Shown here piece after piece: positions 29,790 to 55,064 of a stretch of DNA of 64,000 nucleotides. The DNA is taken from sequence record PZ386966.1. The stretch is one strand, 5' to 3'. Under the pieces are notes generated by a model. That model did no database searches, was not told where the DNA came from, and saw nothing but the letters and a program-made list of their open reading frames with translations. Source of the stretch: a phage. Position numbers and translations under genes: made by a program. Each line of letters opens with the position of its first letter. Positions within the stretch are counted from its first letter, which is position 1.

Positions 29790-30349
29790 TCAGTGTACCT
29801 CAAGCCAATTCTTACCAACTTTACCAGTACCAGTTACAAGCGTTTCCTCCTTAAGTCCTAAGTTTCTTGATGCCTGACCATACATCCAGTCAATCACTGC
29901 TTTAACATCTTGTGTCATCTCTTCTGGGCACTCCCAACTATTCTCATCGTGGTATGCTAGAAGCAATCTAGCACCAATGGCTGGTTTTCGACCATTCAGC
30001 TTTGTAAGACCCTCTTCACAAGTTCTTCTACAAGCGAGGTTGATAGCTTCATTCTGAACCTGACTTTCCGAACCCATGAGCAAGTAATTTAAAAGTTTGT
30101 GCGGAGATTTACACCACAACCATGCACCTGCTACCTTTACAAAACCACCCTTAGATATTGCAGCAGTCTTACCAAACACCTCTTCAAGAGCCTTCTTAGT
30201 GGCTTTGAAGTCTGCTTCCAAATTATCTATCAACTTTTTAATCTTAGGAAGGCGTACAAAGTAAGTTTGCTTAGTTAAAGCACCTTCTTCGGTTGTTGAT
30301 GCTTTAATCGTCTTGGCAAACTTCTCATCACCTGCCCCAAACAATACAT
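29790..30349 (-). CDS. DNA polymerase family A, C-terminal exon (exon 2)
   Basis: Track ORF begins at a TTG, not ATG; frame opens right after an in-frame TGA; N-terminus 'LFGAGDEKFAKT' completes Pol A motif B (T7 'YGAGDEK'); 'LLLAYHDENSWECPEE' is motif C (HDE). Confidence 0.6.
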
Positions 30350-31154
30350 CTGGTCAATACACTCGCAAGGTGTACCAGTTCTCTTATGAACTTCTCCGCA
30401 TTTCTACGGAGTGTCGGACTATATCACGTAGTAGTAATACTACCGTTGCACTTGGGAATGGTCATTAGCTTACCAACCTACTCTACTCAGTTCATACATT
30501 AAGTATGCTTTTCGATAGTCTCTGAACGTTTCTCTGTTAGGAATCTCTATAATCATGTTATTTACTCAGGTAGTCAATTGCCCTTTGCATATTATCAACG
30601 CTATCTGCAAGTAACCCTAAAGCCCTATTGCAATTGTGGCACAACATACCTCTTACTTTTCCGGTTTTGTGGTCATGGTCAACGACAAGTTTAGCTTTAT
30701 GCCGTGAACTATTCATGATAAAACCTTCACCGCCACAAATTTGACATTTGTAATCACAGTTGCGAAGTAGGTTTTCAACCTCTTCTCTTTCTAAACCATA
30801 TGTTCTCAGGTAGTAATTCTTAACTCTACCTTTCTCTCCGCAATGTGAAGAACAATAAACTTGCCTTGCTGTTCTAGGCATGAACACCTTCTCACAGCTA
30901 GGACATTTCTTAGTAAGAACCCTATGTTCTGCTCTTCTGTCAAATTTTAATACGCAACTTCTGCACCGTTTTTGATTGTATTGGTATGGTTTAAACTCTG
31001 CACCACACTCAGTACACAATCTTTCTTTGTAACCTGCCATTGTCTCTCTCCTTTGCTTTAGGAGTCCTAACAGAGACTTCGCTGCTGATTACCATATCTT
31101 TACAGACTTAGGCTTCCAGCAATTCACAACGTTTTACATGCGCCACTGACGCAT
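30350..31154 (-). mobile_element. group I intron (IA-like) interrupting the DNA polymerase gene, with HEG in P6 region
   Basis: Minus-strand conserved elements in canonical order: P-like 'aattgctggaagcc' (31111-31124), Q-like 'aatcagcagc' (31081-31090), R 'gttcagagacta' (30516-30527), S 'gatatagtcc' (30416-30425). Proposed 5' splice after a U and 3' splice after a G restore an in-frame motif B. Exact boundaries inferred. Confidence 0.6.
30558..31040 (-). CDS. intron-encoded endonuclease VII-like (HNH-type) homing endonuclease
   Basis: 'VVDHDHKTGKVRGMLCHNCNRALG' matches the T4 endo VII catalytic motif; N-terminal CxxC zinc ribbons; lies between the two polymerase exons. Confidence 0.6.
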   Translation of the reverse strand: MAGYKERLCTECGAEFKPYQYNQKRCRSCVLKFDRRAEHRVLTKKCPSCEKVFMPRTARQVYCSSHCGEKGRVKNYYLRTYGLEREEVENLLRNCDYKCQICGGEGFIMNSSRHKAKLVVDHDHKTGKVRGMLCHNCNRALGLLADSVDNMQRAIDYLSK

Positions 31155-33324
31155 AAATGCCATTTTTGGCTTTCTTACGACCTTTGCTAATTTCTTGAAG
31201 AAGATTTGTATCCTGAGTGGCTCGACAGGTCAAGATGTCTTCCTCTTTATTAAGGCTGAAGTAAATACTATTTAAAGTATGCGCATCAGTTCCTGAGTAC
31301 ACCACGTACAAGTCATTTTCCGAATCATAATGCAAATACTTGTCAATCTCTGGGTTTAGATACTGGTCAAAATGTTTGCAATAGTATCTGCCATCATCTT
31401 GTTTGACAAACTCAACCTCTTCTTTACCCTCTGTTACTGCTTTAGTGAACTCTTTATCACCCATAAAGTTACACAGCAGTACAAGTTGCGCGCTATTCAT
31501 ATCTGCTGAAACAATATTAGTTCCCTCTTCACAAGTCCACACCTCCCTCATAGGTGCTCCATAGACAGCAGCACCAGACGGTACGTTTACAATACCATAT
31601 TGTGTCATACGTCCAGTTGAAGTACCAAACACCATTGCACCAGCACTAAGGCGACCATCAGGACGAATCTGGTTCAACCATCCTTTTTCATCATCCTTTG
31701 AGTTCTCAATAGTTCTGCGTCGGTGCATCAAAGTGTAGTACTTAGCAATCTTCTGTCCAAGCTCACCTTCAATCGTATCATAAGATGATTCAGTAAGTTT
31801 TGGTGAAGTACGAATTAAGCAAGGTTCAAGTAAGTCTGTGTACTTCTTAACAGACCAGTTATGCTCAATGTACTGGACACCTTCATGTTCAACATAGCTC
31901 AAGCCACAACGCTCAACCATCTCATCCCATTTAGGATGCTTGGTAATCATCTTTTTGTTGTCTTTGAAACGACAAACCTTAACAGGACGACCATCAGAGT
32001 CTTTCTTATAGTTCCAGTCATCAGGAATCCAACCAACTGATTTCAAGTAGTCCTTCACAACAGCCACCTGAGTCATTCGAGAAACTTCAAACTCAATTGG
32101 TGTATATGGTGCATCAATCAAACCTGTGTAGCGACTTGACTCAAGTCCAAAGTGGTTAACAACATGACTGTTATAGTACTTCACAGTTTTAACTGTTTTT
32201 ACTGGCTTCCAGTCTTTGCATTTCTTACCAATCTTTGCATTCAACTCGTTGCAAATTGCACGAGCATCCTTCATTGCTACAAAACCTTCCTTGTACTCTT
32301 CGCCAGTTACAGTGTTGGTTGGTGTATAGCAATTCCGCTTTTCAATGTTAAAAATCTTTGTAGTTGGCTTACCAAATGGCTTGATTTCATATGTCTGCAT
32401 CTCACCGTTACGTACCTGCTGACGATACTTTGTCTTAGGGTACTTGGTAATTCTTTTCAGTCCATCTGCATGACCAAACGCTTCAACATACTCATTCCAA
32501 GCTTTTGCAAACTCTTCTCCAGTGACTTTACCTTTGGTCTTAATAGTTGGTGGAAGGTGTGGTTCAACTTCTGAAGCAAGCTCATTAGTCAACTTGTCAA
32601 GTTCCTTTACATGGAACTCCATAAGCTCTTTATCAGCTTTCCAACCATTGATAGCCTGTTGACTCATCCAGAAAGATGTCTCTTTAGCTCGCATATAGGT
32701 TTCATAAGTGTCTATGCCACACTTCTTTAACTTGAGATATTCATTATCCAGTGCGCGTTTAGTTTTGGCGTTAATACGGATATCTTCTACAACACGAGTG
32801 AAGATTTCTGCATTCCACACACCCCAATGTTCAATCTCTGGTTTACGGACACCAACACGAGCACCCCATGCTGCCAAGCCATGAGCACCTTTATAGCCTT
32901 TTGGAGTTGGTCTATCCATCCACTGAACACGAGACTGGATAAGAGAGTCCTGAAAGAAATTACTCCACGGCTTACATTTTGGATTATCGAAGTTCCACAA
33001 ATCAGGTGCAATATGATTGAAAACCCACCAGTCATACCCCAGACCATTATGGATACAAAGCCGTTTTGCCTTTAACGCAAACTCAATACCTTCACGTAAA
33101 CCACCCTTAATGTACTTGGTATACTTGTGACCGAGGATAGGCTCATCTGTAAAGACCCATACAGGTGGCTCCTCATCGTCAGATTTATAGTCTGCGAAAG
33201 CCATGACGTGGACTTTAGTGAACTCAAGGAGTAAACCATCAGTTTCTGTATCACCAACTAAGTGTAAGTTTTTAAAATCTACGTTTTCCATTTGTACTCC
33301 CTCTAATTCGTTAACCCCATACAT
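31155..33324 (-). CDS. DNA polymerase family A, N-terminal exon (exon 1; uninterrupted ORF runs to 31108)
   Basis: Exo I-like 'DTETDGL', motif A-like 'VSADMNSAQLVLL', start of motif B 'RKKAKNGIY'; ORF then continues into intron sequence and stops. Confidence 0.65.
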
Positions 33325-38250: not shown

Positions 38251-39108
38251 ATGTCTAAAGTTGTTAAAATGAAAGCTCCGGTAGAGAAGTACAACGGTAC
38301 TGAACGTCAAACTCTGCGTTACCTGCTGAAAGATGTCTGGTTTTATTACCTGAACACTTCACCACGTCCGGGCAAAGGTAAATCTATTGACAAGAAATTC
38401 CCAGGAAAAGATTGTAACTACAGCGTGTCAATTCTGGCAGAAGACGGTAACAAGCTCTTTAAAGAGTTTACTAAGTCTAAGAAGAACCCAGAAGGTTGGG
38501 ATAAAGTTACTACTGAAGCAGTTGATGCAGATGACTTCGAAGAGAAGTTTGGTTGCAAACCACCTTTTGAAGCAGACACTTACTACATCTTGAAAGTAAG
38601 TCGTGCAGCAGCTTATAAAGATGGTGCTGTATGGACAGCTAAACAGTCATTCCCTGTTATGCTTATTGAAGAAGTAAATGGTAAGCGTGTAGCTGTTAAA
38701 CAGCCGATGAAGAAAATTAAAGCTCAAGCATCTGATAAACATGAAGATGACAAGAACTATGATGTAATTCATCCAGATATTGCAGTTGGTAACGGTTCTT
38801 TTGGTAGTGTGATTCTTTCTACTCACTTCTACACTTTTGAGAACAATGTTCTGACAAAACCTATTCAGGAACAGTTTATCATTGATACTCTTGTACCTTA
38901 CACTGGTGGTAACGGTGCTAACGGCGAACCTGAACTGGATGAAGACGAACTGGCTATGCTTGGTCTTGATGGTGTCGAAGATAACGGTGAAATCACTGAA
39001 GAAGACGCAACAGACCATAAATCTTCGAATGAGTCTGATGATGGTGATGATGAAGATTTGCCAGACCCAGATGACGAAGAAGATGAAGACTTCGATACAG
39101 AAGACTAA
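38251..39108 (+). CDS. single-stranded DNA-binding protein (T7 gp2.5-like)
   Basis: Strongly acidic C-terminal tail ending 'DEEDEDFDTED'; position next to primase-helicase and exonuclease. Confidence 0.45.
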   Translation: MSKVVKMKAPVEKYNGTERQTLRYLLKDVWFYYLNTSPRPGKGKSIDKKFPGKDCNYSVSILAEDGNKLFKEFTKSKKNPEGWDKVTTEAVDADDFEEKFGCKPPFEADTYYILKVSRAAAYKDGAVWTAKQSFPVMLIEEVNGKRVAVKQPMKKIKAQASDKHEDDKNYDVIHPDIAVGNGSFGSVILSTHFYTFENNVLTKPIQEQFIIDTLVPYTGGNGANGEPELDEDELAMLGLDGVEDNGEITEEDATDHKSSNESDDGDDEDLPDPDDEEDEDFDTED

Positions 39109-39170: not shown

Positions 39171-40217
39171 ATGGAGAAGTACACATTAACAAAACTTCCC
39201 GATTCAGTTACACATGTTTTTATTGACTCTGACAGTATTGCCTATAAAGGTGCTTGTGTAGTTGAGAAAGCAAAATATAAATATGTCAATAAACTCACAG
39301 CAGAAGAATCTGAACCATTTGATAATGCGAAAGATGCTGCAAGATGGTTAGCAGACCAGAGAATCCTTGTGGAAGAACTTGGCCTGACATTTGATGAAGA
39401 TGAATGGGAAAGACAAACTTGGAAAGAAGCTAAGAGTGAAAAAGAAGCTATCATGGCTACTCAACAGGTGCTTCAGGAATGGCTTAAGGTGGTTGGTAAA
39501 GAGAGAACTTGGGTAGGTTATTTAACAGAGAAAGGTGTGCATAAACATAAAGACATTAAAGGTCTTGAGCACCAATATCAAGGGAACCGTAAAGATGCTG
39601 TCACACCAACACACTTAGTCGCTTGTCGTGAATATCTTCTGTCAAGACCAGAGTTCAAATTGATTCTTGATGGATTTGAAGCTGACTCTATCGTTATCGC
39701 TAAAGCTGAAAAGATGGGAAAAAAGGCTGCCTTAATGAGTATTGATAAAGACCTTCGCCAAGCTGAAGGTACTTACTGCATTGATATGACCTATGAAAAA
39801 TCACCTTTAATTTTCATTGCTGATAACAACGTTGGTGAAATTTGGGATTGTCCAATAAAATCGACACCAAAAACTAAGAAGACAGTTGGTGTAGGTTTTA
39901 AATTTCTTTGTTATCAAGCTGTGGCTGGTGATAATGCGGATAATTACTTTGGTTTAAAGGGTGTTGGCAAAGCTGCTGTGATGAAGGCTCTTGAAGGGAA
40001 AACAACTTACAAAGAGTGCCTTGATGCAATTTACGAGCTATATGCTAAGAAAGACTCCTACACTTATGTATCATGGGATGGTCAAACAATTACCAGAACA
40101 CCTTTAGAATTAATGCAGCAACACTTTTTCTTAGCTTATCAGGAAAGAAATAAGAAAGACGATTTTACTTTTGATAAGTATGGGTGGACACCAAATGTTA
40201 ACTCAACAAACTCTTAA
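39171..40217 (+). CDS. 5'-3' exonuclease / flap endonuclease
   Basis: H3TH-like 'VAGDNADNYFGLKGVGKAAVMKAL'; acidic N-terminal 'FIDSDSIAYK'. Confidence 0.55.
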   Translation: MEKYTLTKLPDSVTHVFIDSDSIAYKGACVVEKAKYKYVNKLTAEESEPFDNAKDAARWLADQRILVEELGLTFDEDEWERQTWKEAKSEKEAIMATQQVLQEWLKVVGKERTWVGYLTEKGVHKHKDIKGLEHQYQGNRKDAVTPTHLVACREYLLSRPEFKLILDGFEADSIVIAKAEKMGKKAALMSIDKDLRQAEGTYCIDMTYEKSPLIFIADNNVGEIWDCPIKSTPKTKKTVGVGFKFLCYQAVAGDNADNYFGLKGVGKAAVMKALEGKTTYKECLDAIYELYAKKDSYTYVSWDGQTITRTPLELMQQHFFLAYQERNKKDDFTFDKYGWTPNVNSTNS

Positions 40218-40695
40218 AGAGTACCTGCGCTATGACCCCGAAACAGGGGTCTTTACTTGGTTAGTTGATAGAAAAGGTAAGGCCAAAGCTGGCTCAGTAG
40301 CAGGTTTGAAACACCATAGCGGTTATATCTATATAAAACTCTTCGGGAAAAGATACGCAGCACACAGACTGGCATTCTTGTATATGAAAGGATACCTCCC
40401 AAAATTTGTTGACCATAAGAATGGTATCAGGCACGACAACTGGTTCGACAATTTGAGAGAGTGTAGCAGGTCAGACAATAACTGTAATGCAGTCAAAAGA
40501 AGAGATAATAAATCTGGTGTGAAGGGTGTATATTACCACAAGCAAAGGGGTAGATGGGCTGCACAAGTCAAGCATAATAAAGTTTGCTATCATCTAGGTT
40601 TATTTGACTCTATCGCTGAGGCTGAATCAGTTGTCAAAAAGAAAAGAGAAGAACTCCATAGAGAGTTTACAAATCACGGAGAAGCTTATGAATGA
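40171..40695 (+). CDS. HNH homing endonuclease with AP2 DNA-binding domain
   Basis: 'YDPETGVFTW' N-terminal motif, HNH_3-like 'VDHKNGIRHDNWFDNLRECSRSDN', AP2-like 'SGVKGVYYHKQRGRWAAQV'; overlaps end of exonuclease gene. Confidence 0.6.
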   Translation: MISMGGHQMLTQQTLKEYLRYDPETGVFTWLVDRKGKAKAGSVAGLKHHSGYIYIKLFGKRYAAHRLAFLYMKGYLPKFVDHKNGIRHDNWFDNLRECSRSDNNCNAVKRRDNKSGVKGVYYHKQRGRWAAQVKHNKVCYHLGLFDSIAEAESVVKKKREELHREFTNHGEAYE

Positions 40696-41192
40696 TTAAA
40701 GTTAAAGGTTTTGGGAGTTGTCCAACTTATGGACATTGGGTTTCACTATGTGGTGAAGTTGACCCAGCAAAGCACTTTGGTTTTGTCTACCTAGTGTACT
40801 GCAAAAAGACTGGACAGTACTATTTGGGTAAGAAACAGCTTAATAGCGTAACCAAAAGAAAAGTTGCTGGCAAGACTCGGAAGAAGATAGTCACTAAGGA
40901 AAGTGATTGGATGACTTACGAGACTTCTTCTGAGTATATTAAAAAAGATATTGAGAGCTTTGGAAAAGAATTTTTTGACTTTTACATTATCCAAACCTAC
41001 TACACAAAAGGTGGTCTAGTTTATGGTGAAGCAAACCTTCAACATAAGTTCGATGTGATGACAAAAAGGATTGACTCGAAGCTCAGACTCTTCTACAATG
41101 CCAATATTGCAGCAATTAAGTTTATTACTAAAGAAACTTATGAAGATGCTGAAAAAAGAATCCATAAGGTAATGAAAGCAAATCGTGCTTGA
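40692..41192 (+). CDS. GIY-YIG-like nuclease (putative)
   Basis: 'FGFVYLVYCKKTGQYYLGKK' resembles the GIY...YIG core; remainder not recognisably conserved. Confidence 0.3.
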   Translation: MIKVKGFGSCPTYGHWVSLCGEVDPAKHFGFVYLVYCKKTGQYYLGKKQLNSVTKRKVAGKTRKKIVTKESDWMTYETSSEYIKKDIESFGKEFFDFYIIQTYYTKGGLVYGEANLQHKFDVMTKRIDSKLRLFYNANIAAIKFITKETYEDAEKRIHKVMKANRA

Positions 41193-41198
41193 TAACTA

Positions 41199-41462
41199 TT
41201 GAGAGAGAATAAAATGTTTAACAAAAGTAAAGCTGTGAGTCATGTAGCAAAAGTTGACAGCAAGATTGAAGAACTTGAGCGCATCCTTGCAAATGCTAGA
41301 GAGTCAATAATTAAAGAAGTTGAAGCTGTTGAGTCTCAAATGCAGCACCTAATGCTTAAGCGTCAAGAGCTACGTGAGCATCTAGAATATATTGAAACAC
41401 GAGAGCTAAAGGTTAACAAATATTTTAAGGAGTCCGAATGTTTAACTCAAGAGAATCAGTAA
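41199..41462 (+). CDS. hypothetical coiled-coil protein
   Basis: 87 aa. Confidence 0.3.
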   Translation: MRENKMFNKSKAVSHVAKVDSKIEELERILANARESIIKEVEAVESQMQHLMLKRQELREHLEYIETRELKVNKYFKESECLTQENQ

Positions 41463-42193
41463 AAAACTGGAACCTTCGTTGTGGAAACACTCAAAAGCAA
41501 CCTTACAGTAATGAGTATTGGGAATCTTTAAAATCTCAATCTCTGTGTATGCTTGAAGAAGCAAAAGAGCTTGTAAAAGCAATTGAAGAGAAAGACCCCA
41601 TTGAGACACTGGATGCTCAGGCAGATTTGCAATATGTTCTTGACGGCTTGATTTATCTGTCACAACATGACCATAACGGTGCTATGAAAGCTGTTTGCCA
41701 TAATAATGACCTGAAGTACACAGATGACTATGAAGAAGCTTTAAAACGTCTTGCAGACATTGAAAAGCGTACTGGTCAAGAGTGTATTATCAGAATGTCA
41801 GTAGTTGATGGTAAAGAGTGGTATGCTATTGTTCGTGCAGCCGATGGGAAGATTATGAAGCAATCAAATCTCCCTAAAGTACAGCTTGGTGAATACATTG
41901 TAGAACTTGAAAGCCAAGAACTTTTTGTGGTAGTATCTGAGACATGCGTTATCTGCAAAGGTATTGTAGGTAGCTTAAAGGATTTGGGTGTAGATGGTTT
42001 TGTAGAAGTTAATCCAATTACCTCTAAAGCAGATAAAGACTTCTGTAAAGAGAATGGACTATGGATTGCAGATATTGTCTACTATGATGGTGAGCAGTTC
42101 CATGTAACCTCATACCCGAAACTGAATTATGATGCTAATAACCTGAAGTGCTGGTTAAAAGGGGTTGGTTATAATGGATTCACAGAACATTAA
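41438..42193 (+). CDS. MazG/HisE-like all-alpha NTP pyrophosphohydrolase domain protein
   Basis: 'LCMLEEAKELVKAIEE...LDAQADLQYVLDGLIYL' resembles the EExxE / A-D-L-L-Y helix pair of MazG-type NTP-PPases; C-terminal 150 aa unknown. Confidence 0.35.
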   Translation: MFNSRESVKNWNLRCGNTQKQPYSNEYWESLKSQSLCMLEEAKELVKAIEEKDPIETLDAQADLQYVLDGLIYLSQHDHNGAMKAVCHNNDLKYTDDYEEALKRLADIEKRTGQECIIRMSVVDGKEWYAIVRAADGKIMKQSNLPKVQLGEYIVELESQELFVVVSETCVICKGIVGSLKDLGVDGFVEVNPITSKADKDFCKENGLWIADIVYYDGEQFHVTSYPKLNYDANNLKCWLKGVGYNGFTEH

Positions 42194-51558: not shown

Positions 51559-52074
51559 ATGTATCTGTCAAATCTAAAACGTTCTGCTGCAATGACAGTA
51601 TTAAGACTCAGCTTTGAGGAACGTCAAGAGTTCATTGACTCCCACCAATACGACCCTTCTAACTCCAATCACATGATTCTATGGAATCGTGACAGCACTC
51701 GTGAGAGAGCACTATTCCGCTACTACCCACATTACACCATAGATAACCTGTATGAATGTTTTGTTGTGAAGAACACCATTACAGTACTCAATAAACTTTG
51801 CAGATACACAGGTAGTCAATCCTTCACATTAGGACACCACAAACCTGTTACAAAGGGTGGTGAGCATCACTGTGCAAACTGGTTTATCCAGACTAAACTT
51901 GATAACCAGAAGCAAGGAGATAACCTTCTAAGCACACCTAAGATGACCTATGAAGAGCAAGAGAAATATATCAAAAATAATATGCCAGATGTGCTTGACA
52001 ACAACTATACAGATTTGGCAATATCTCTCCTGTTGAAGTTCGAGACAGTTTATAGGGCAACTTATAATGGCTAA
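51559..52074 (+). CDS. HNH-like nuclease (putative)
   Basis: 'LGHHKPVTKGGEHHCANWFIQTKLDNQKQGDN' resembles an HNH core (HH...GG...N...N..K). Confidence 0.3.
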   Translation: MYLSNLKRSAAMTVLRLSFEERQEFIDSHQYDPSNSNHMILWNRDSTRERALFRYYPHYTIDNLYECFVVKNTITVLNKLCRYTGSQSFTLGHHKPVTKGGEHHCANWFIQTKLDNQKQGDNLLSTPKMTYEEQEKYIKNNMPDVLDNNYTDLAISLLLKFETVYRATYNG

Positions 52075-52345
52075 AGAAAAGTGGGAAATTTTACCATTAG
52101 TCAGTGAAGGTGGTAATGGTTGTGAAATGTATATGATACGGGGTCATGTTCCAGAACCAATTGCACTTGAGATGGTAAACAACTTTACAGATGGTTCATA
52201 CAAAGATTTAGGGGAACCAACTGTCAAGCAACAATGGGTTAAACCTGTACCAGACAGCACAGGTAACTGTAGTGTACTTTACCACGTTGTAGACCCTGTA
52301 AAATGCAAATCTGCAATGGCAGTAACAAACGTAACTTTTGATTGA
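52067..52345 (+). CDS. hypothetical protein
   Basis: 92 aa. Confidence 0.3.
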   Translation: MAKEKWEILPLVSEGGNGCEMYMIRGHVPEPIALEMVNNFTDGSYKDLGEPTVKQQWVKPVPDSTGNCSVLYHVVDPVKCKSAMAVTNVTFD

Positions 52346-53238
52346 GAGAGAAAACTATGAAAACTGTTATTGAAGCCGTCGTCACAGCACAAGAGAAATT
52401 CTTCCACACAGAAAAATTTAATATCATTCAATTCCCATCTGGAGAAATTGGTGGAAACTTCTCTGAAGATTTTGTTAAGTTTACTGAACGTAATGCTGGT
52501 AAGATTGACAATGTTATACTCACTGTGCAGGGGTATGACAAAGATACACTGTTTGCATTAGCTTTGGCTAAGGATGCCGTTGACAGTCTTGTTCCCCAGA
52601 AATCAGCGATGAAAACCGTTGTTTTCGGATACTTACCAAATGCTCGATATGACCGTCATATGTTCAAAGGTGATTCAGCAGCACTGAAAGTTTTTGCCAA
52701 CCTCGTTAATGCAATGGGTTTTGATGCAGTATGTGCTCTTGACCCTCACAGTAATGTTGCAGAAAACTTATTTAAGTGCTTTCAGAGCATGAAGCAAAAA
52801 GATGTTGCAGCACACTTTGCAAGTGACCCACGCATTGATTTCTTGGTAGCACCAGATGCAGGTGCAGCTAAGAAGACTGAAGATGCCGCTAAAGAGGTAG
52901 ATAAACCCTATATCACAATGTCTAAGGTTCGCAATCTTAAGACTGGAGAAATCACTGGTATGCGAGTCCTTGACGATGTTGATTTGACCGATAAAACTGT
53001 CATGATTCTTGATGATATCTGTGATGGTGGTCGAACCTTCGTGGAGGCAGCTAAACACCTACGTGAAGCAGGTGCAAAACGTGTGGAACTCTATGTAACT
53101 CATGGTATTTTCTCTAAAGGTGTTGAAAGCTTACTTGACAACGGTATTGACCATATCTACACTACAAACTCTTTAGGTGAAGCTAAAGACCGTGGCTTAA
53201 CACATTATGGCCAAGTTACTGTAGCAACCATTGATTAA
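52342..53238 (+). CDS. ribose-phosphate pyrophosphokinase (Prs)-like protein; candidate Adps of NARP1
   Basis: Phosphoribosyltransferase-type binding loop 'VMILDDICDGGRTF' and Prs-like C-terminal domain; 298 aa; directly upstream of the NAMPT-like gene. Confidence 0.6.
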   Translation: MREKTMKTVIEAVVTAQEKFFHTEKFNIIQFPSGEIGGNFSEDFVKFTERNAGKIDNVILTVQGYDKDTLFALALAKDAVDSLVPQKSAMKTVVFGYLPNARYDRHMFKGDSAALKVFANLVNAMGFDAVCALDPHSNVAENLFKCFQSMKQKDVAAHFASDPRIDFLVAPDAGAAKKTEDAAKEVDKPYITMSKVRNLKTGEITGMRVLDDVDLTDKTVMILDDICDGGRTFVEAAKHLREAGAKRVELYVTHGIFSKGVESLLDNGIDHIYTTNSLGEAKDRGLTHYGQVTVATID

Positions 53239-53246
53239 AACTTATA

Positions 53247-53267
53247 GGGGCTTAAAAGCCCCATTTT
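53247..53267 (+). terminator. weak terminator/attenuator hairpin
   Basis: 'ggggcttaaaagcccc' then 'atttt'. Confidence 0.35.
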
Positions 53268-53282
53268 GAGAGAGATTAAAAG

Positions 53283-55064
53283 ATGACTAAATCACTTTAT
53301 GCAGTACCAGCAGGTCTTAATGCAGATGCTTACAAGGCATCACATATATATCAGTATCCAGATGCTACGCAATATCTTATGTTGAACCTGACACCACGTA
53401 GTGACAAATGGTTTAACAGCCCCTTAGCAATTGATGGTGTGGTGGCTTTTGGTATTCAACGTTTTGTTAAAGATTACTTGATAGACCACTGGAACGCAAC
53501 TTTCTTTGAGCGTGATAAAAAAGAAGCAGTTGACGAAATCTTAGAAGTCATGAATGGTGTTCTGGGTAAAGATGCTATCGGTCGAGAGCATTGGGAAGCA
53601 CTTCACGACTTAGGTTATCTACCAGTTGAAGTATACGCTGTAGAAGAAGGCACAGTTGTCCCTATGCGTGTTCCGATGATTGTTTTCCAGAACACTGTTT
53701 CAGGTTTCCATTGGGTAGCAGGTTATCTGGAAGATGCTTTCTCTGCTGAGATTTGGAAGGCTTGTACCATTGCAACTATTGCATTGCACTACAAACGTAT
53801 CTGTAAGAAGTGGGCTGACCTTACTTGTGACAACGACTTGCATTTACCTTATCAGTGCCATGACTTTGCTATGCGTGGTATGTCCGGCTTTACTGATGAC
53901 GCATTTAACGCTGTAGGCCACTTAACCAGCTTTAAAGGAACTGATAGCTTTCCTGCTGTGTATACGGCTAAACGAATCTATGGACAGTCCTACCCAATCT
54001 CTGATATTGGTAGTTCTGTACCAGCCACTGAGCACTCTGTAATGTGTGCAAACATTGCTTGGGAAGGTGGTAATGAATTGATTGAAGAAGAAAGACGCTT
54101 CAAAGGTGAGTTGCAAACCTTCCGTCGCTTCTTAACAGAGACTTACCCGACTGGTATTGCAAGTATTGTTTCAGATACTTATAACTTCTGGAGAACTGTG
54201 TCAGAAATCTTACCAGCACTTCGTAAAGAAATTATGGAACGTGATGGTAAACTGGTAATTCGTCCTGACTCTGGAGACCCTGTACACATTGTCACAGGTT
54301 ATAAAGCAATCCACTTAGAGTGTGCTAAAAAGGCTTATTATGAGCACCTAAGCAAGCTGGAAGCCAGCGACACAATGTTGAATGCTGTTCTGAACATGAA
54401 GCTTGAAAACATCAACTATGGTATTGCTGGATGGCTACTGTCAGAAGGCTACGAAATGGTTGTTGACAGAGAAGACTTTGAAGCTGCTGATACGGTGATG
54501 TTGAAAGATGCTTATATGGTTGGTTCTGCAAACGTTGTAACACGCCCTGTAGCGGAGATTGATGGAGCTATTAAGACACTGTACAACATCTTTGGGGGAA
54601 CTATTAACTCTAAAGGGTTTAAGGTACTGGATGAGCATATCGGTCTTATCTATGGCGACTCTATCACGCTGGAACGTGCAAACGAAATCCTGAAGCGTCT
54701 GTATGAAATGGGTTTTGCAAGCTCTAACGTAGTGTTTGGTGTAGGCTCTTACACTTACCAGTACATGACTCGTGACACCTTTGCATTTGCTGTCAAAGCA
54801 ACTCTTGCAAGCATTGGTGGTAAAGAGATTATGCTTGCAAAAGACCCTAAAACAGATAGTGGTGTTAAGAAATCTGCTTTTGGTGGTGTAGCACCTATGT
54901 GGGACGGTGATAAGCTGAAAGCTGTAGATGGCTATGGGTTCCAGAGTTTTGCAGATGTACTTGACCACCCAGCTTGTGCCTTACGTTTAGTCTTTAGTGA
55001 CTCTGAGCAGTTCGGTTACACAACTCTTGGTGATATTCGAAATAATATTGACAAGCAGCTTTAA
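53283..55064 (+). CDS. nicotinamide phosphoribosyltransferase (NAMPT/NadV)-like protein; candidate Namat of NARP1
   Basis: N-terminal 'NADAYKASHIYQYPDAT' matches the NAMPT 'DSYKVTHYKQYP' signature; 593 aa. Confidence 0.7.
   Translation: MTKSLYAVPAGLNADAYKASHIYQYPDATQYLMLNLTPRSDKWFNSPLAIDGVVAFGIQRFVKDYLIDHWNATFFERDKKEAVDEILEVMNGVLGKDAIGREHWEALHDLGYLPVEVYAVEEGTVVPMRVPMIVFQNTVSGFHWVAGYLEDAFSAEIWKACTIATIALHYKRICKKWADLTCDNDLHLPYQCHDFAMRGMSGFTDDAFNAVGHLTSFKGTDSFPAVYTAKRIYGQSYPISDIGSSVPATEHSVMCANIAWEGGNELIEEERRFKGELQTFRRFLTETYPTGIASIVSDTYNFWRTVSEILPALRKEIMERDGKLVIRPDSGDPVHIVTGYKAIHLECAKKAYYEHLSKLEASDTMLNAVLNMKLENINYGIAGWLLSEGYEMVVDREDFEAADTVMLKDAYMVGSANVVTRPVAEIDGAIKTLYNIFGGTINSKGFKVLDEHIGLIYGDSITLERANEILKRLYEMGFASSNVVFGVGSYTYQYMTRDTFAFAVKATLASIGGKEIMLAKDPKTDSGVKKSAFGGVAPMWDGDKLKAVDGYGFQSFADVLDHPACALRLVFSDSEQFGYTTLGDIRNNIDKQL

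Follow-up and report, generated by a model that had tools for sequence, protein, structure and literature searches.

A mobile HNH gene probably lies beside a fixed GIY-YIG gene at the exonuclease junction of a Felix O1-like phage

Do two nuclease genes that stand in tandem behind a phage exonuclease both move between genomes, or has one of them settled? The question is raised by the phage DNA PZ386966.1, Felix O1-like and belonging to the Ounavirinae, of which a stretch of 64,000 nt (the window) was analysed. The genes run here in the order exo, ORF A, ORF B, a small ORF and MazG. The first-pass annotation had described ORF A and ORF B as two tandem free-standing nuclease genes and had listed two further nuclease-like ORFs elsewhere; all of these ORFs are present where it placed them. 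We suggest that the locus probably combines one mobile nuclease gene, ORF A, with one fixed gene, ORF B. Nuclease folds are found in both members of the pair, and this part of the earlier description stands, whereas the mobility of ORF B does not. Overall the locus is an ordinary one, and close relatives are already annotated for the same genes. The distribution counts given below have as their denominator 302 Ounavirinae phage records in which an exo ortholog was found by database search; the counts contain GenBank/RefSeq duplicates, and further HNH alleles may lie outside this sample.

The exo gene (39171..40217, plus strand) encodes a 5'-3' exonuclease of the FEN/RNase H-like type, with a match to phrog_107 at 6.3e-66 and a weak one to Pfam 5_3_exonuc. 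Its 3' end is overlapped, as noticed earlier, by a free-standing HNH_3 plus AP2 homing endonuclease gene, ORF A (40195..40695, plus strand, open from TTG 40171). Pfam finds PF13392 HNH_3 (9.8e-13; motif VDHKNG…DN…NL…DNN) and PF00847 AP2 (3.9e-08), the score of the latter, 33.9 bits, being barely over the cut-off of 33.3. ORF A is matched by the PHROG family phrog_99 ‘HNH endonuclease’ at 4.6e-75 and is labelled ‘HEase’ by PADLOC (9e-09). E-values of the nuclease matches in the window are far past chance, except for those of ORF 51559-52074 discussed below. Only a single ORF matches phrog_99 in a scan of the 86 window ORFs, which gave counts per family and is no complete list of homing endonuclease genes; within the 64-kb window the four nuclease ORFs are all without a paralogue. 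The TTG at 40171 implies an overlap of 47 nt with exo and the ATG at 40195 one of 23 nt; the ATG, which is also the annotated start in phage HY02, is more likely the real one. ORF A lies between genes, in a frame different from that of exo and outside any intron or intein.

The comparison of presence and absence in related genomes, which the first-pass annotation had proposed, reveals ORF A as a precise polymorphism with several alleles at one site. The Felix O1-type HNH allele, to which ORF A belongs, occurs in 43 of the 302 records. The same exo/ORF B junction carries an HY02-type allele in 18 records, a wV8-type allele in 21 and a Moogle-type allele in 6, these HNH alleles being mutually 52-64% identical, and in about 70% of records it is free of any HNH gene. 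At such empty sites exo overlaps ORF B (allfine, phiEa21-4 and Arno18) or abuts it (Zyzzx). Alignment of the window with allfine, HY02 and wV8 places the insertion, an exact indel of about 500 bp relative to HNH-less genomes, at approximately 40185..40687 (plus strand). Its right edge re-uses ATGAATGA, the motif with which exo ends and ORF B begins in the empty sites. The last ~8 codons of exo (…GWTPNVNSTNS*) come from the HNH cassette, while the exo of HNH-less allfine ends in …NWEPCMNED*. On the other side the cassette closes with the ATGA overlap at which ORF B begins, and the flanking frames of exo and ORF B are both intact. The 5' ~70 nt of ORF A, which contain a GC-rich hairpin GACCCCGAAACAGGGGTC (40234..40251, plus strand), are near-invariant across HNH alleles that are otherwise ~55-65% identical, and this stretch has short matches of 82-100% to HNH paralogues elsewhere in the genomes. 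Hence, judged by its distribution, ORF A appears to be a mobile homing endonuclease gene and the sole one of the tandem pair.

The flanks of the insertion are unusual as well. In sliding windows the identity to relatives drops to 0.77-0.89 upstream (39600..40190, plus strand), which we infer to be a co-conversion or mosaic tract, and to 0.77-0.93 downstream, in the 5' ~200 nt of ORF B (40696..40900, plus strand); beyond ~200-600 bp from the insert it is 0.95-1.00. In line with this, dS of exo is 0.22-0.70 as against 0.04-0.16 in the outer neighbours, and that of ORF B is likewise above the outer neighbours. The trough agrees with co-conversion, without proving it, and could instead reflect ordinary mosaic recombination. 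The flanking variants in the alignment do not consistently follow the presence of an HNH gene: wV8 (HNH-bearing) and allfine (HNH-less) have the same ORF B 5' end, and the exo 3' end is shared by the window and allfine. For this reason the HNH target site is not locatable from the flank polymorphisms of the window, allfine, HY02 and wV8. The earlier idea that nuclease genes may mark recombination hot spots fits both the allele diversity of ORF A and the identity trough around it.

We propose the following mechanism. The ORF A cassette occupies the very junction of exo and ORF B, which are conserved and translationally coupled, and its end in ATGA would keep the translational coupling into ORF B. 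In a mixed infection the ORF A enzyme, with its AP2 domain supplying sequence recognition, would nick or cut nearby in an HNH-less allele, and recombinational repair would then copy ORF A together with a few hundred bp of its flanks. Such cutting and repair copying would account for a gene that occurs only sporadically, for a single site with several alleles and for the trough of identity in exo and ORF B.

ORF B (40692..41192, plus strand), the ATG of which overlaps the stop codon of ORF A (ATGA), presents another picture. It is a standalone SegE-type GIY-YIG nuclease domain (Pfam SegE_GIY-YIG, 1.1e-26) and a core gene of the Ounavirinae. The protein has 166 aa, and the sole domain found is PF19835 at residues 22-139. 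ORF B is present in 299 of the 302 records, in every genus and always directly after exo; at least 80% of it is covered in 298 of the 299 matching records, the organism breakdown is the same as for exo, five genera or groups show unchanged synteny, and no empty site was seen. Its dN/dS is 0.04-0.09, even with dS saturated. The amino-acid identity to phiEa21-4 is 61% for ORF B, compared with 55% for exo, 48% for p3877 and 38% for MazG.

Those catalytic residues that can be placed are preserved as well. F31-V-Y33 and Y44-L-G46 are spaced by 11 residues, like Y6 and Y17 of I-TevI. The family shows no variation in the catalytic Tyr, Tyr, Gly, Glu and Asn, and all 89 representatives have E113 and N136. 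R27 of I-TevI is placed by hhalign near V53-R56; the candidates for this Arg are the basic cluster K55-R56-K57 and the near-invariant R63, none of which aligns unambiguously with R27. A profile search of the PDB with the ORF B family returned nothing meaningful, and the fold comparison was therefore used: the AF2 model, compact and of high confidence, has an α/β GIY-YIG fold. NCBIfam and PADLOC gave no match for ORF B. A DNA-binding module (NUMOD3 or HTH) is absent from ORF B, while NUMOD3 occurs in 22 of 89 relatives and HTH in a few. About 40% of the representatives of the family are just as short, which marks the standalone form as a common and stable architecture. The ‘NAD synthetase’ label (PHROG 447) was considered as well and has no evidence in support. 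We conclude that ORF B is a conserved core gene, which databases mislabel as ‘NAD synthetase’ or ‘GIY-YIG homing endonuclease’.

ORF B has its origin in the same family as the Seg-like homing endonucleases, and most likely it is an active nuclease retained for a phage function. Our best guess is that it would cut DNA in a non-specific or structure-directed manner in replication, recombination or host-DNA breakdown. We tentatively go one step further and consider that ORF B may be a domesticated Seg-type GIY-YIG nuclease that, after loss of its DNA-binding module, became core to Ounavirinae DNA metabolism and translationally coupled to exo, and which might degrade host DNA or debranch replication and recombination intermediates. 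An association of such a gene with an exonuclease was not seen outside the Ounavirinae among the cyanophage and Stenotrophomonas phage homologues examined.

Other explanations of the pair have to be weighed against this. The first-pass annotation, like many GenBank annotations, took ORF A and ORF B as a tandem array of two currently mobile homing endonuclease genes. The SegE GIY-YIG family does have longer members with the NUMOD3 or HTH typical of homing endonucleases, and homologues of ORF B in T4-like cyanophages and Stenotrophomonas phages stand in variable contexts, as is typical of mobile genes. However, a gene fixed at one position in nearly all records, under purifying selection and devoid of a DNA-binding extension does not behave in this way; the distribution of ORF B largely refutes its present mobility, and we regard the both-mobile explanation as highly improbable. 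The opposite extreme, that ORF B is the dead remnant of an ancient Seg-like gene, which lost its DNA-binding domain together with its nuclease function and is merely wedged between coupled genes, would account for its C-terminal shortness relative to Seg-like relatives and for the uncertain position of the catalytic Arg. It is at odds with the five invariant catalytic residues, with strong purifying selection and a conservation across genera better than that of the neighbours, with the confident and compact GIY-YIG model and with the many family members just as short. We thus consider it unlikely.

For ORF A the alternative is immobility: the gene would be ancestral at the site and deleted many times, and the ‘alleles’ would be vertically diverged orthologues. 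The four HNH alleles indeed share their 5' and 3' ends and their position in the alignment. Yet the presence or the allele of HNH varies between backbones whose outer genes are 98-100% identical, the divergence between alleles being far beyond that of these backbones, and the outgroups sampled (Kolesnikvirus, Hafnia and Pectobacterium phages) are without ORF A. Each deletion, moreover, would have to leave exo and ORF B intact and overlapping again, every time with another C-terminus of exo. This makes the immobility of ORF A very unlikely, and we retain the combination of a mobile ORF A and a fixed ORF B.

Two more ORFs had been counted among the homing endonuclease genes of this DNA. The one at 51559..52074 (plus strand), taken for a third HNH-like gene of this kind, belongs to phrog_3500 (unknown function) and has a weak HNH-like motif. 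It has no Pfam nuclease match and matches the HNH family phrog_2214 weakly (E 2.4e-4); at least 80% of it is covered in 241 of 283 matching records, Mooglevirus and Suspvirus included. Being widely conserved and barely HNH-like, it is a conserved gene and not a mobile homing endonuclease gene.

The other, at 30558..31040 (minus strand), was correctly read as intron-encoded. It is an ORF for an endonuclease VII-type (HNH/His-Me) intron-encoded homing endonuclease (PF02945 Endonuclease_7, 8.6e-20; phrog_307, 3.2e-42) and is flanked by two PolA fragments, exon 1 of DNA polymerase A (31149..33324, minus strand, ending …AAT GGC ATT TAT GCG T) and exon 2 (29790..30346, minus strand, starting TA TTG TTT GGG…). 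Between them lies a group I intron of 802 nt (30347..31148, minus strand), inserted in polymerase motif B (…KNGIYA|LLFGAG…) and constituting an indel relative to wV8. P1 is formed by exon AUGCGU and intron GCGCAU, a U·G pair falling on the 5' splice site; the 3' end of the intron reads …AGAUG with a terminal G, and CAGUG can pair with UAUUG of the 3' exon (P10). Rfam at the gathering threshold returned nothing for the whole window, and a permissive local scan gave a partial RF00028 match over P3-P6 (28.1 bits, E 5.9e-05), partial because the ORF sits in the extended P6 loop. An ORF-less intron of 268 nt in BPS17L1/W1 reaches 63.8 and 62.1 bits, with the gathering score being 50, and is identical to the ends of the window intron at 74-75 of 77 and 183-186 of 189 positions (96-98%); this comparison is by local alignment, as global MAFFT misplaced the 5' piece. 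The predicted spliced polA, with the junction KNGIYALLFGAG, has 2733 nt and encodes 910 aa with 92.1% identity and 0 gaps to the uninterrupted Felix O1 polymerase. The intron with the endonuclease ORF is found in ~41 records; in other records polA is uninterrupted or contains the intron without an ORF. Taken together, the intron features and the gapless predicted product mark the ORF as what appears to be a true homing endonuclease gene, carried by a group I intron in polA. Of the multiple homing endonuclease genes claimed for the window there are thus two active-looking mobile ones, ORF A and the intron ORF, rather than four.

Much of this has counterparts in known systems. In Felix O1 the order exo, HNH, ORF B, small ORF and MazG is the same as in the window, with no essential difference at the locus: ORF106 (NP_944978, HNH endonuclease) is the orthologue of ORF A with 95.7% DNA identity and ORF107 (NP_944980, ‘phage conserved protein’ or ‘NAD synthetase’) that of ORF B with 97.4%. 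The window phage differs from Felix O1 in having the polA intron and in being without the Felix O1 HNH genes ORF95 (downstream of polA) and ORF128 (between prs and nadV). Six HNH genes are described in Felix O1 (PMC3185647). What mainly sets Felix O1-like phages apart from one another is the insertion or deletion of homing endonuclease genes (PMC3728262), and the traffic of these genes in this group is already published. HNH-AP2 endonucleases are noted in RB49 and phage Felix 01 (Magnani et al. 2004, cited in PMC4237383; Table 5 of PMC2993671). ORF A resembles these HNH-AP2 endonucleases and the T-even mob genes in having an HNH catalytic domain and a separate DNA-binding module, and in its sporadic occurrence between conserved genes with mosaic flanks. 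Unlike in those systems, at least four diverged alleles compete here for one junction, with 5' ends near-identical in DNA. The polA intron is similar to those group I introns of phage DNA polymerase genes that carry HNH endonucleases, I-HmuI/II of SPO1/SP82 and I-PfoP3I of cyanophage Pf-WMP3 (PMC3428280): it interrupts a highly conserved motif of a family A polymerase and has an HNH-type ORF in a peripheral loop. It differs in the Endonuclease_7-type protein in P6 and in the BPS17L1/W1 version, which is ORF-less and stands beside a free-standing HNH gene downstream of polA.

ORF B is set apart from I-TevI and the T4 Seg endonucleases (SegE family, PF19835) by the missing NUMOD3/HTH extension, and it is fixed across a subfamily, while T4 Seg endonucleases are sporadic. 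T4 endonuclease II (DenA) is a standalone GIY-YIG nuclease that nicks host DNA. ORF B has no sequence relationship to it detectable by the PDB profile search; by analogy, we hypothesise that ORF B might degrade host DNA as well. No modification of Felix O1-type DNA is known, and therefore a host-DNA-degrading ORF B would need another basis for telling self from non-self.

The current understanding of homing endonucleases is unchanged by these results, and the practical points are modest. The exo/ORF B junction should be masked in Felixounavirus phylogenies, and as a natural system it is a clean one in which to study how homing endonucleases compete and how co-conversion proceeds. The polA that GenBank annotates as two ‘DNA polymerase’ CDSs in dozens of records is one gene with a group I intron. 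Finally, hundreds of Felix O1-like genomes, many of them proposed for biocontrol or therapy, carry the ‘NAD synthetase’ or the ‘GIY-YIG homing endonuclease’ label on ORF B. If ORF B is indeed domesticated, both labels would be wrong, and competing HNH genes would land by preference at the exo/ORF B junction, both its neighbours being indispensable.

Two of the four nuclease-like ORFs that the first-pass annotation read as homing endonuclease traffic are credible mobile genes, namely ORF A behind the 5'-3' exonuclease gene and an ORF within polA; the other two, ORF B and an ORF at 51559-52074, are conserved, and the overall reading is thus half right. The claimed tandem pair was found in place: ORF A (40171-40695, + strand) follows the exonuclease gene exo (39171-40217, +), and ORF B (40692-41192, +) lies directly behind it. 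The order of primase/helicase, phrog_3877, exo, ORF A, ORF B, a small ORF and a MazG-like gene, continuing to nrdA, is that of Felix O1 ORF101-112. The 5-kb stretch around the pair has matches in 259 phage records, with Escherichia phage radambza on top (96.9%) and Salmonella phages SPT-1, PMBT20 and Felix O1 at 96.6-96.8%. The best-matching phages all belong to Felixounavirus, subfamily Ounavirinae. Felix O1-like sequence of 90-96% identity is also present in records named Staphylococcus phage SA1, Campylobacter phages A132 and A126 and Listeria phage LPML1, and in a protein assigned to Methanobrevibacter gottschalkii; contamination or mislabelling of these records is the probable cause.

ORF A matches Pfam HNH_3 (9.8e-13), AP2 barely over the cut-off (3.9e-08) and phrog_99, 'HNH endonuclease' (4.6e-75). 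It was mechanically called from TTG 40171; from ATG 40195, the start annotated in phage HY02, it overlaps exo by 23 nt. Full-length copies were found by blastn in only 43 records, and the exo ortholog in 302. The empty site, where exo directly overlaps ORF B, is seen in allfine (Felixounavirus), phiEa21-4 (Kolesnikvirus) and Pectobacterium phage Arno18, and in Hafnia phage Zyzzx the two genes abut with no ORF A between them. The same junction holds three other HNH alleles, HY02-type (18 records), wV8-type (21) and Moogle-type (6), with cores just 52-64% identical to the window allele. About 29% of records carry one of the four known alleles, a figure that counts records rather than unique phages and beside which further alleles may exist. 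ORF A is hence polymorphic as expected for a mobile homing endonuclease gene.

Alignment of the window with allfine, HY02 and wV8 resolves the insert as an exact indel. Its left edge is immediately 3' of ...TATGGGTGG, and it swaps the last exo codons (GWTPNVNSTNS* versus NWEPCMNED*). Its right edge is an ATGAATGA motif, which in empty sites holds the stop codon of exo together with the start codon of ORF B. The insert supplies the exo end and stops at ATGAATGA, and therefore both flanking reading frames remain intact. ORF A is a credible active mobile endonuclease gene. Its first ~70 nt (40195-40262) are near-identical across HNH alleles that otherwise share 52-64% identity, and are 82-100% identical to HNH paralogues elsewhere in relatives' genomes. 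They include a GC-rich hairpin at 40234-40251, GACCCCGAAACAGGGGTC followed by TTT. Gene conversion between paralogues could account for this shared 5' end, as could a regulatory RNA restraining expression of the endonuclease.

The surroundings of the insert are unusually divergent. In comparison with three other felixounaviruses, phrog_3877, most of exo and the MazG-like gene are 95-100% identical, and identity falls to 0.77-0.89 over the last stretch of exo (300-600 nt) and the opening 200 nt of ORF B. Across the three genomes exo has a dS of 0.22-0.70 and ORF B one of 0.27-0.59, versus 0.04-0.16 for the outer genes, so that synonymous divergence is several-fold higher in the block 39171-41192 than in 38251-39108 and 41438-42193. 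The block is better left out of phylogenies. This is as expected of co-conversion with homing, or of repeated replacement of alleles. It is short of proof: the flank variants in the alignment do not co-segregate strictly with HNH presence. The identity drop and raised dS support the earlier remark that such genes may mark recombination hot spots.

ORF B had been taken for a second mobile gene, and its conservation contradicts this. Its start codon and the stop codon of ORF A overlap as ATGA. By blastn it is present in 299 records, at least 80% covered in 298 of them, with the same organism breakdown as exo (Escherichia 120, Salmonella 80, Erwinia 29, Shigella 23, others). In the genomes examined it always stands right behind exo or behind the HNH insert. 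Its dN/dS is 0.04-0.09 against felixounaviruses and Moogle, and its protein identity to the phiEa21-4 orthologue (61%) exceeds that of exo (55%), phrog_3877 (48%) and the MazG-like gene (38%). Universal conservation among relatives at the same position was what the first-pass annotation itself had set as grounds for refutation, and for ORF B that ground applies: it is a core gene rather than a mobile one.

The GIY-YIG domain of ORF B is real. Residues 22-139 match the SegE domain PF19835 (1.1e-26), the AlphaFold model built on a deep alignment reaches pLDDT 93.9, and an exhaustive HMMER search gives 1298 representative clusters. Among 89 diverse aligned members G30, Y33, Y44, G46, K48, W73, Y76, S79, E113 and N136 are invariant. 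In hhalign, with the I-TevI sequence checked against PDB 1MK0 and 1LN0, Y33, Y44 and G46 correspond to I-TevI Y6, Y17 and G19, and no confident counterpart of the catalytic Arg was placed. NUMOD3 motifs occur in 22 of the 89 relatives and HTH domains in a few; ORF B consists of the catalytic domain and a C-terminal helix only, with neither module found. The length distribution of the family is bimodal: of the top 150 representatives about 40% have at most 190 aa, though fragments may be among these. More remote homologues (~30-37% identity), present in over 370 cyanomyovirus records and in a few other myoviruses, are standalone genes of ~145 aa in variable contexts unrelated to an exonuclease. 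Defence-system and NCBIfam models gave no match to ORF B. We suggest as its most likely ancestor a Seg-type homing endonuclease whose targeting module was lost, the gene then being kept for a phage function; it may nick DNA in host-DNA breakdown or in processing of replication/recombination intermediates.

PHROGs assigns ORF B to phrog_447, named 'NAD synthetase'. Nothing supports this name, the match being to SegE GIY-YIG, and members of PHROG 447 likewise show SegE GIY-YIG matches and the GIY-YIG nuclease fold. The name is probably a propagated misannotation; it has been carried over into the RefSeq annotations of Felix O1-like phages and into those of several hundred cyanophages.

The ORF at 51559-52074, also proposed as a mobile HNH gene, has no Pfam nuclease match and a weak HNH phrog match (E 2.4e-4), and is a member of phrog_3500, of unknown function. 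It is at least 80% covered in 241 of 283 matching records, Mooglevirus and Suspvirus included, and is conserved, not mobile. Nearby, within 52342-55064, prs (ending at 53238) adjoins nadV (starting at 53283) with no HNH gene between; in Felix O1 the HNH endonuclease gene ORF128 lies between the ribose-phosphate pyrophosphokinase and nadV genes. This interval is a further presence/absence site for a homing endonuclease gene.

The suggestion that the Endonuclease_7-type ORF at 30558-31040 (-; 8.6e-20), located between two PolA fragments, is intron-encoded was borne out. The window polA, intron included, spans 29790-33324 (-) and carries an 802-nt insertion at 31148-30347 relative to the uninterrupted wV8 gene. 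Joining ...TATGCGT to TATTGTTT... restores a 2733-nt ORF of 910 aa, whose product aligns without gaps to the 906-aa Felix O1 polymerase (92.1% identity). The splice junction, KNGIYALLFGAG, is within motif B. Group I features are present: U is the last nucleotide of the 5' exon, P1 forms between AUGCGU and intron GCGCAU and includes a U·G pair, G is the last intron nucleotide, and P10 pairing is possible. Rfam gives a partial Intron_gpI match over P3-P6 (28.1 bits, E 5.9e-05). The 268-nt ORF-less form in BPS17L1 and BPS17W1 scores 63.8 and 62.1 bits (gathering score 50) and matches the two ends of the window intron at 74-75/77 and 183-186/189 positions. The window intron is therefore this 268-nt ribozyme with a ~536-nt P6-loop insertion, closed by a 12-bp extension, UCUCUGUUAGGA / UCCUAACAGAGA. 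The intron with its ORF occurs in ~41 records, others having uninterrupted polA, as in Felix O1, which has no intron, or a different arrangement. The ORF is a credible candidate for an active mobile endonuclease gene.

Directly downstream of the ORF-less-intron polA, Salmonella phages BPS17W1 and BPS17L1 carry a free-standing HNH gene (intron and HNH gene at 1153-1420 and 1981-2514 of locus L010, BPS17W1, and at 1153-1420 and 1977-2489 of L011, BPS17L1). Felix O1, with uninterrupted polA, has HNH gene ORF95 in the same place. Endonucleases that act in trans on the same polymerase target, or that compete for it, are a possible reading.

The finding on the ORF A/ORF B locus is ordinary, since Felix O1 and dozens of relatives already have it, with annotation, and the movement of homing endonuclease genes in this group has been published. 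Six HNH genes and no introns were reported in Felix O1 (Whichard et al. 2010, PMC3185647). Felix O1-like phages are reported to differ mainly by homing endonuclease gene indels, frequently located between conserved genes or within them (Moreno Switt et al. 2013, PMC3728262), and for UAB_Phi87 nrdD is described as split and as carrying a homing endonuclease gene (PMC4837284). AP2 literature cites HNH-AP2 endonucleases in 'Bacteriophage Felix 01' (PMC4237383). Within an incomplete literature coverage, no publication was found that describes the group I intron of polA or treats ORF B as a core gene of Ounavirinae. Public records of intron-containing polA (VpaE1, JH2, FSL SP-012, VSe102 and others) list two 'DNA polymerase' CDSs and an endonuclease, and those inspected have no intron annotation. 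What remains of value is twofold: a polA mis-annotated as a split gene and, in ORF B, a fixed, mislabelled, predicted standalone GIY-YIG nuclease.
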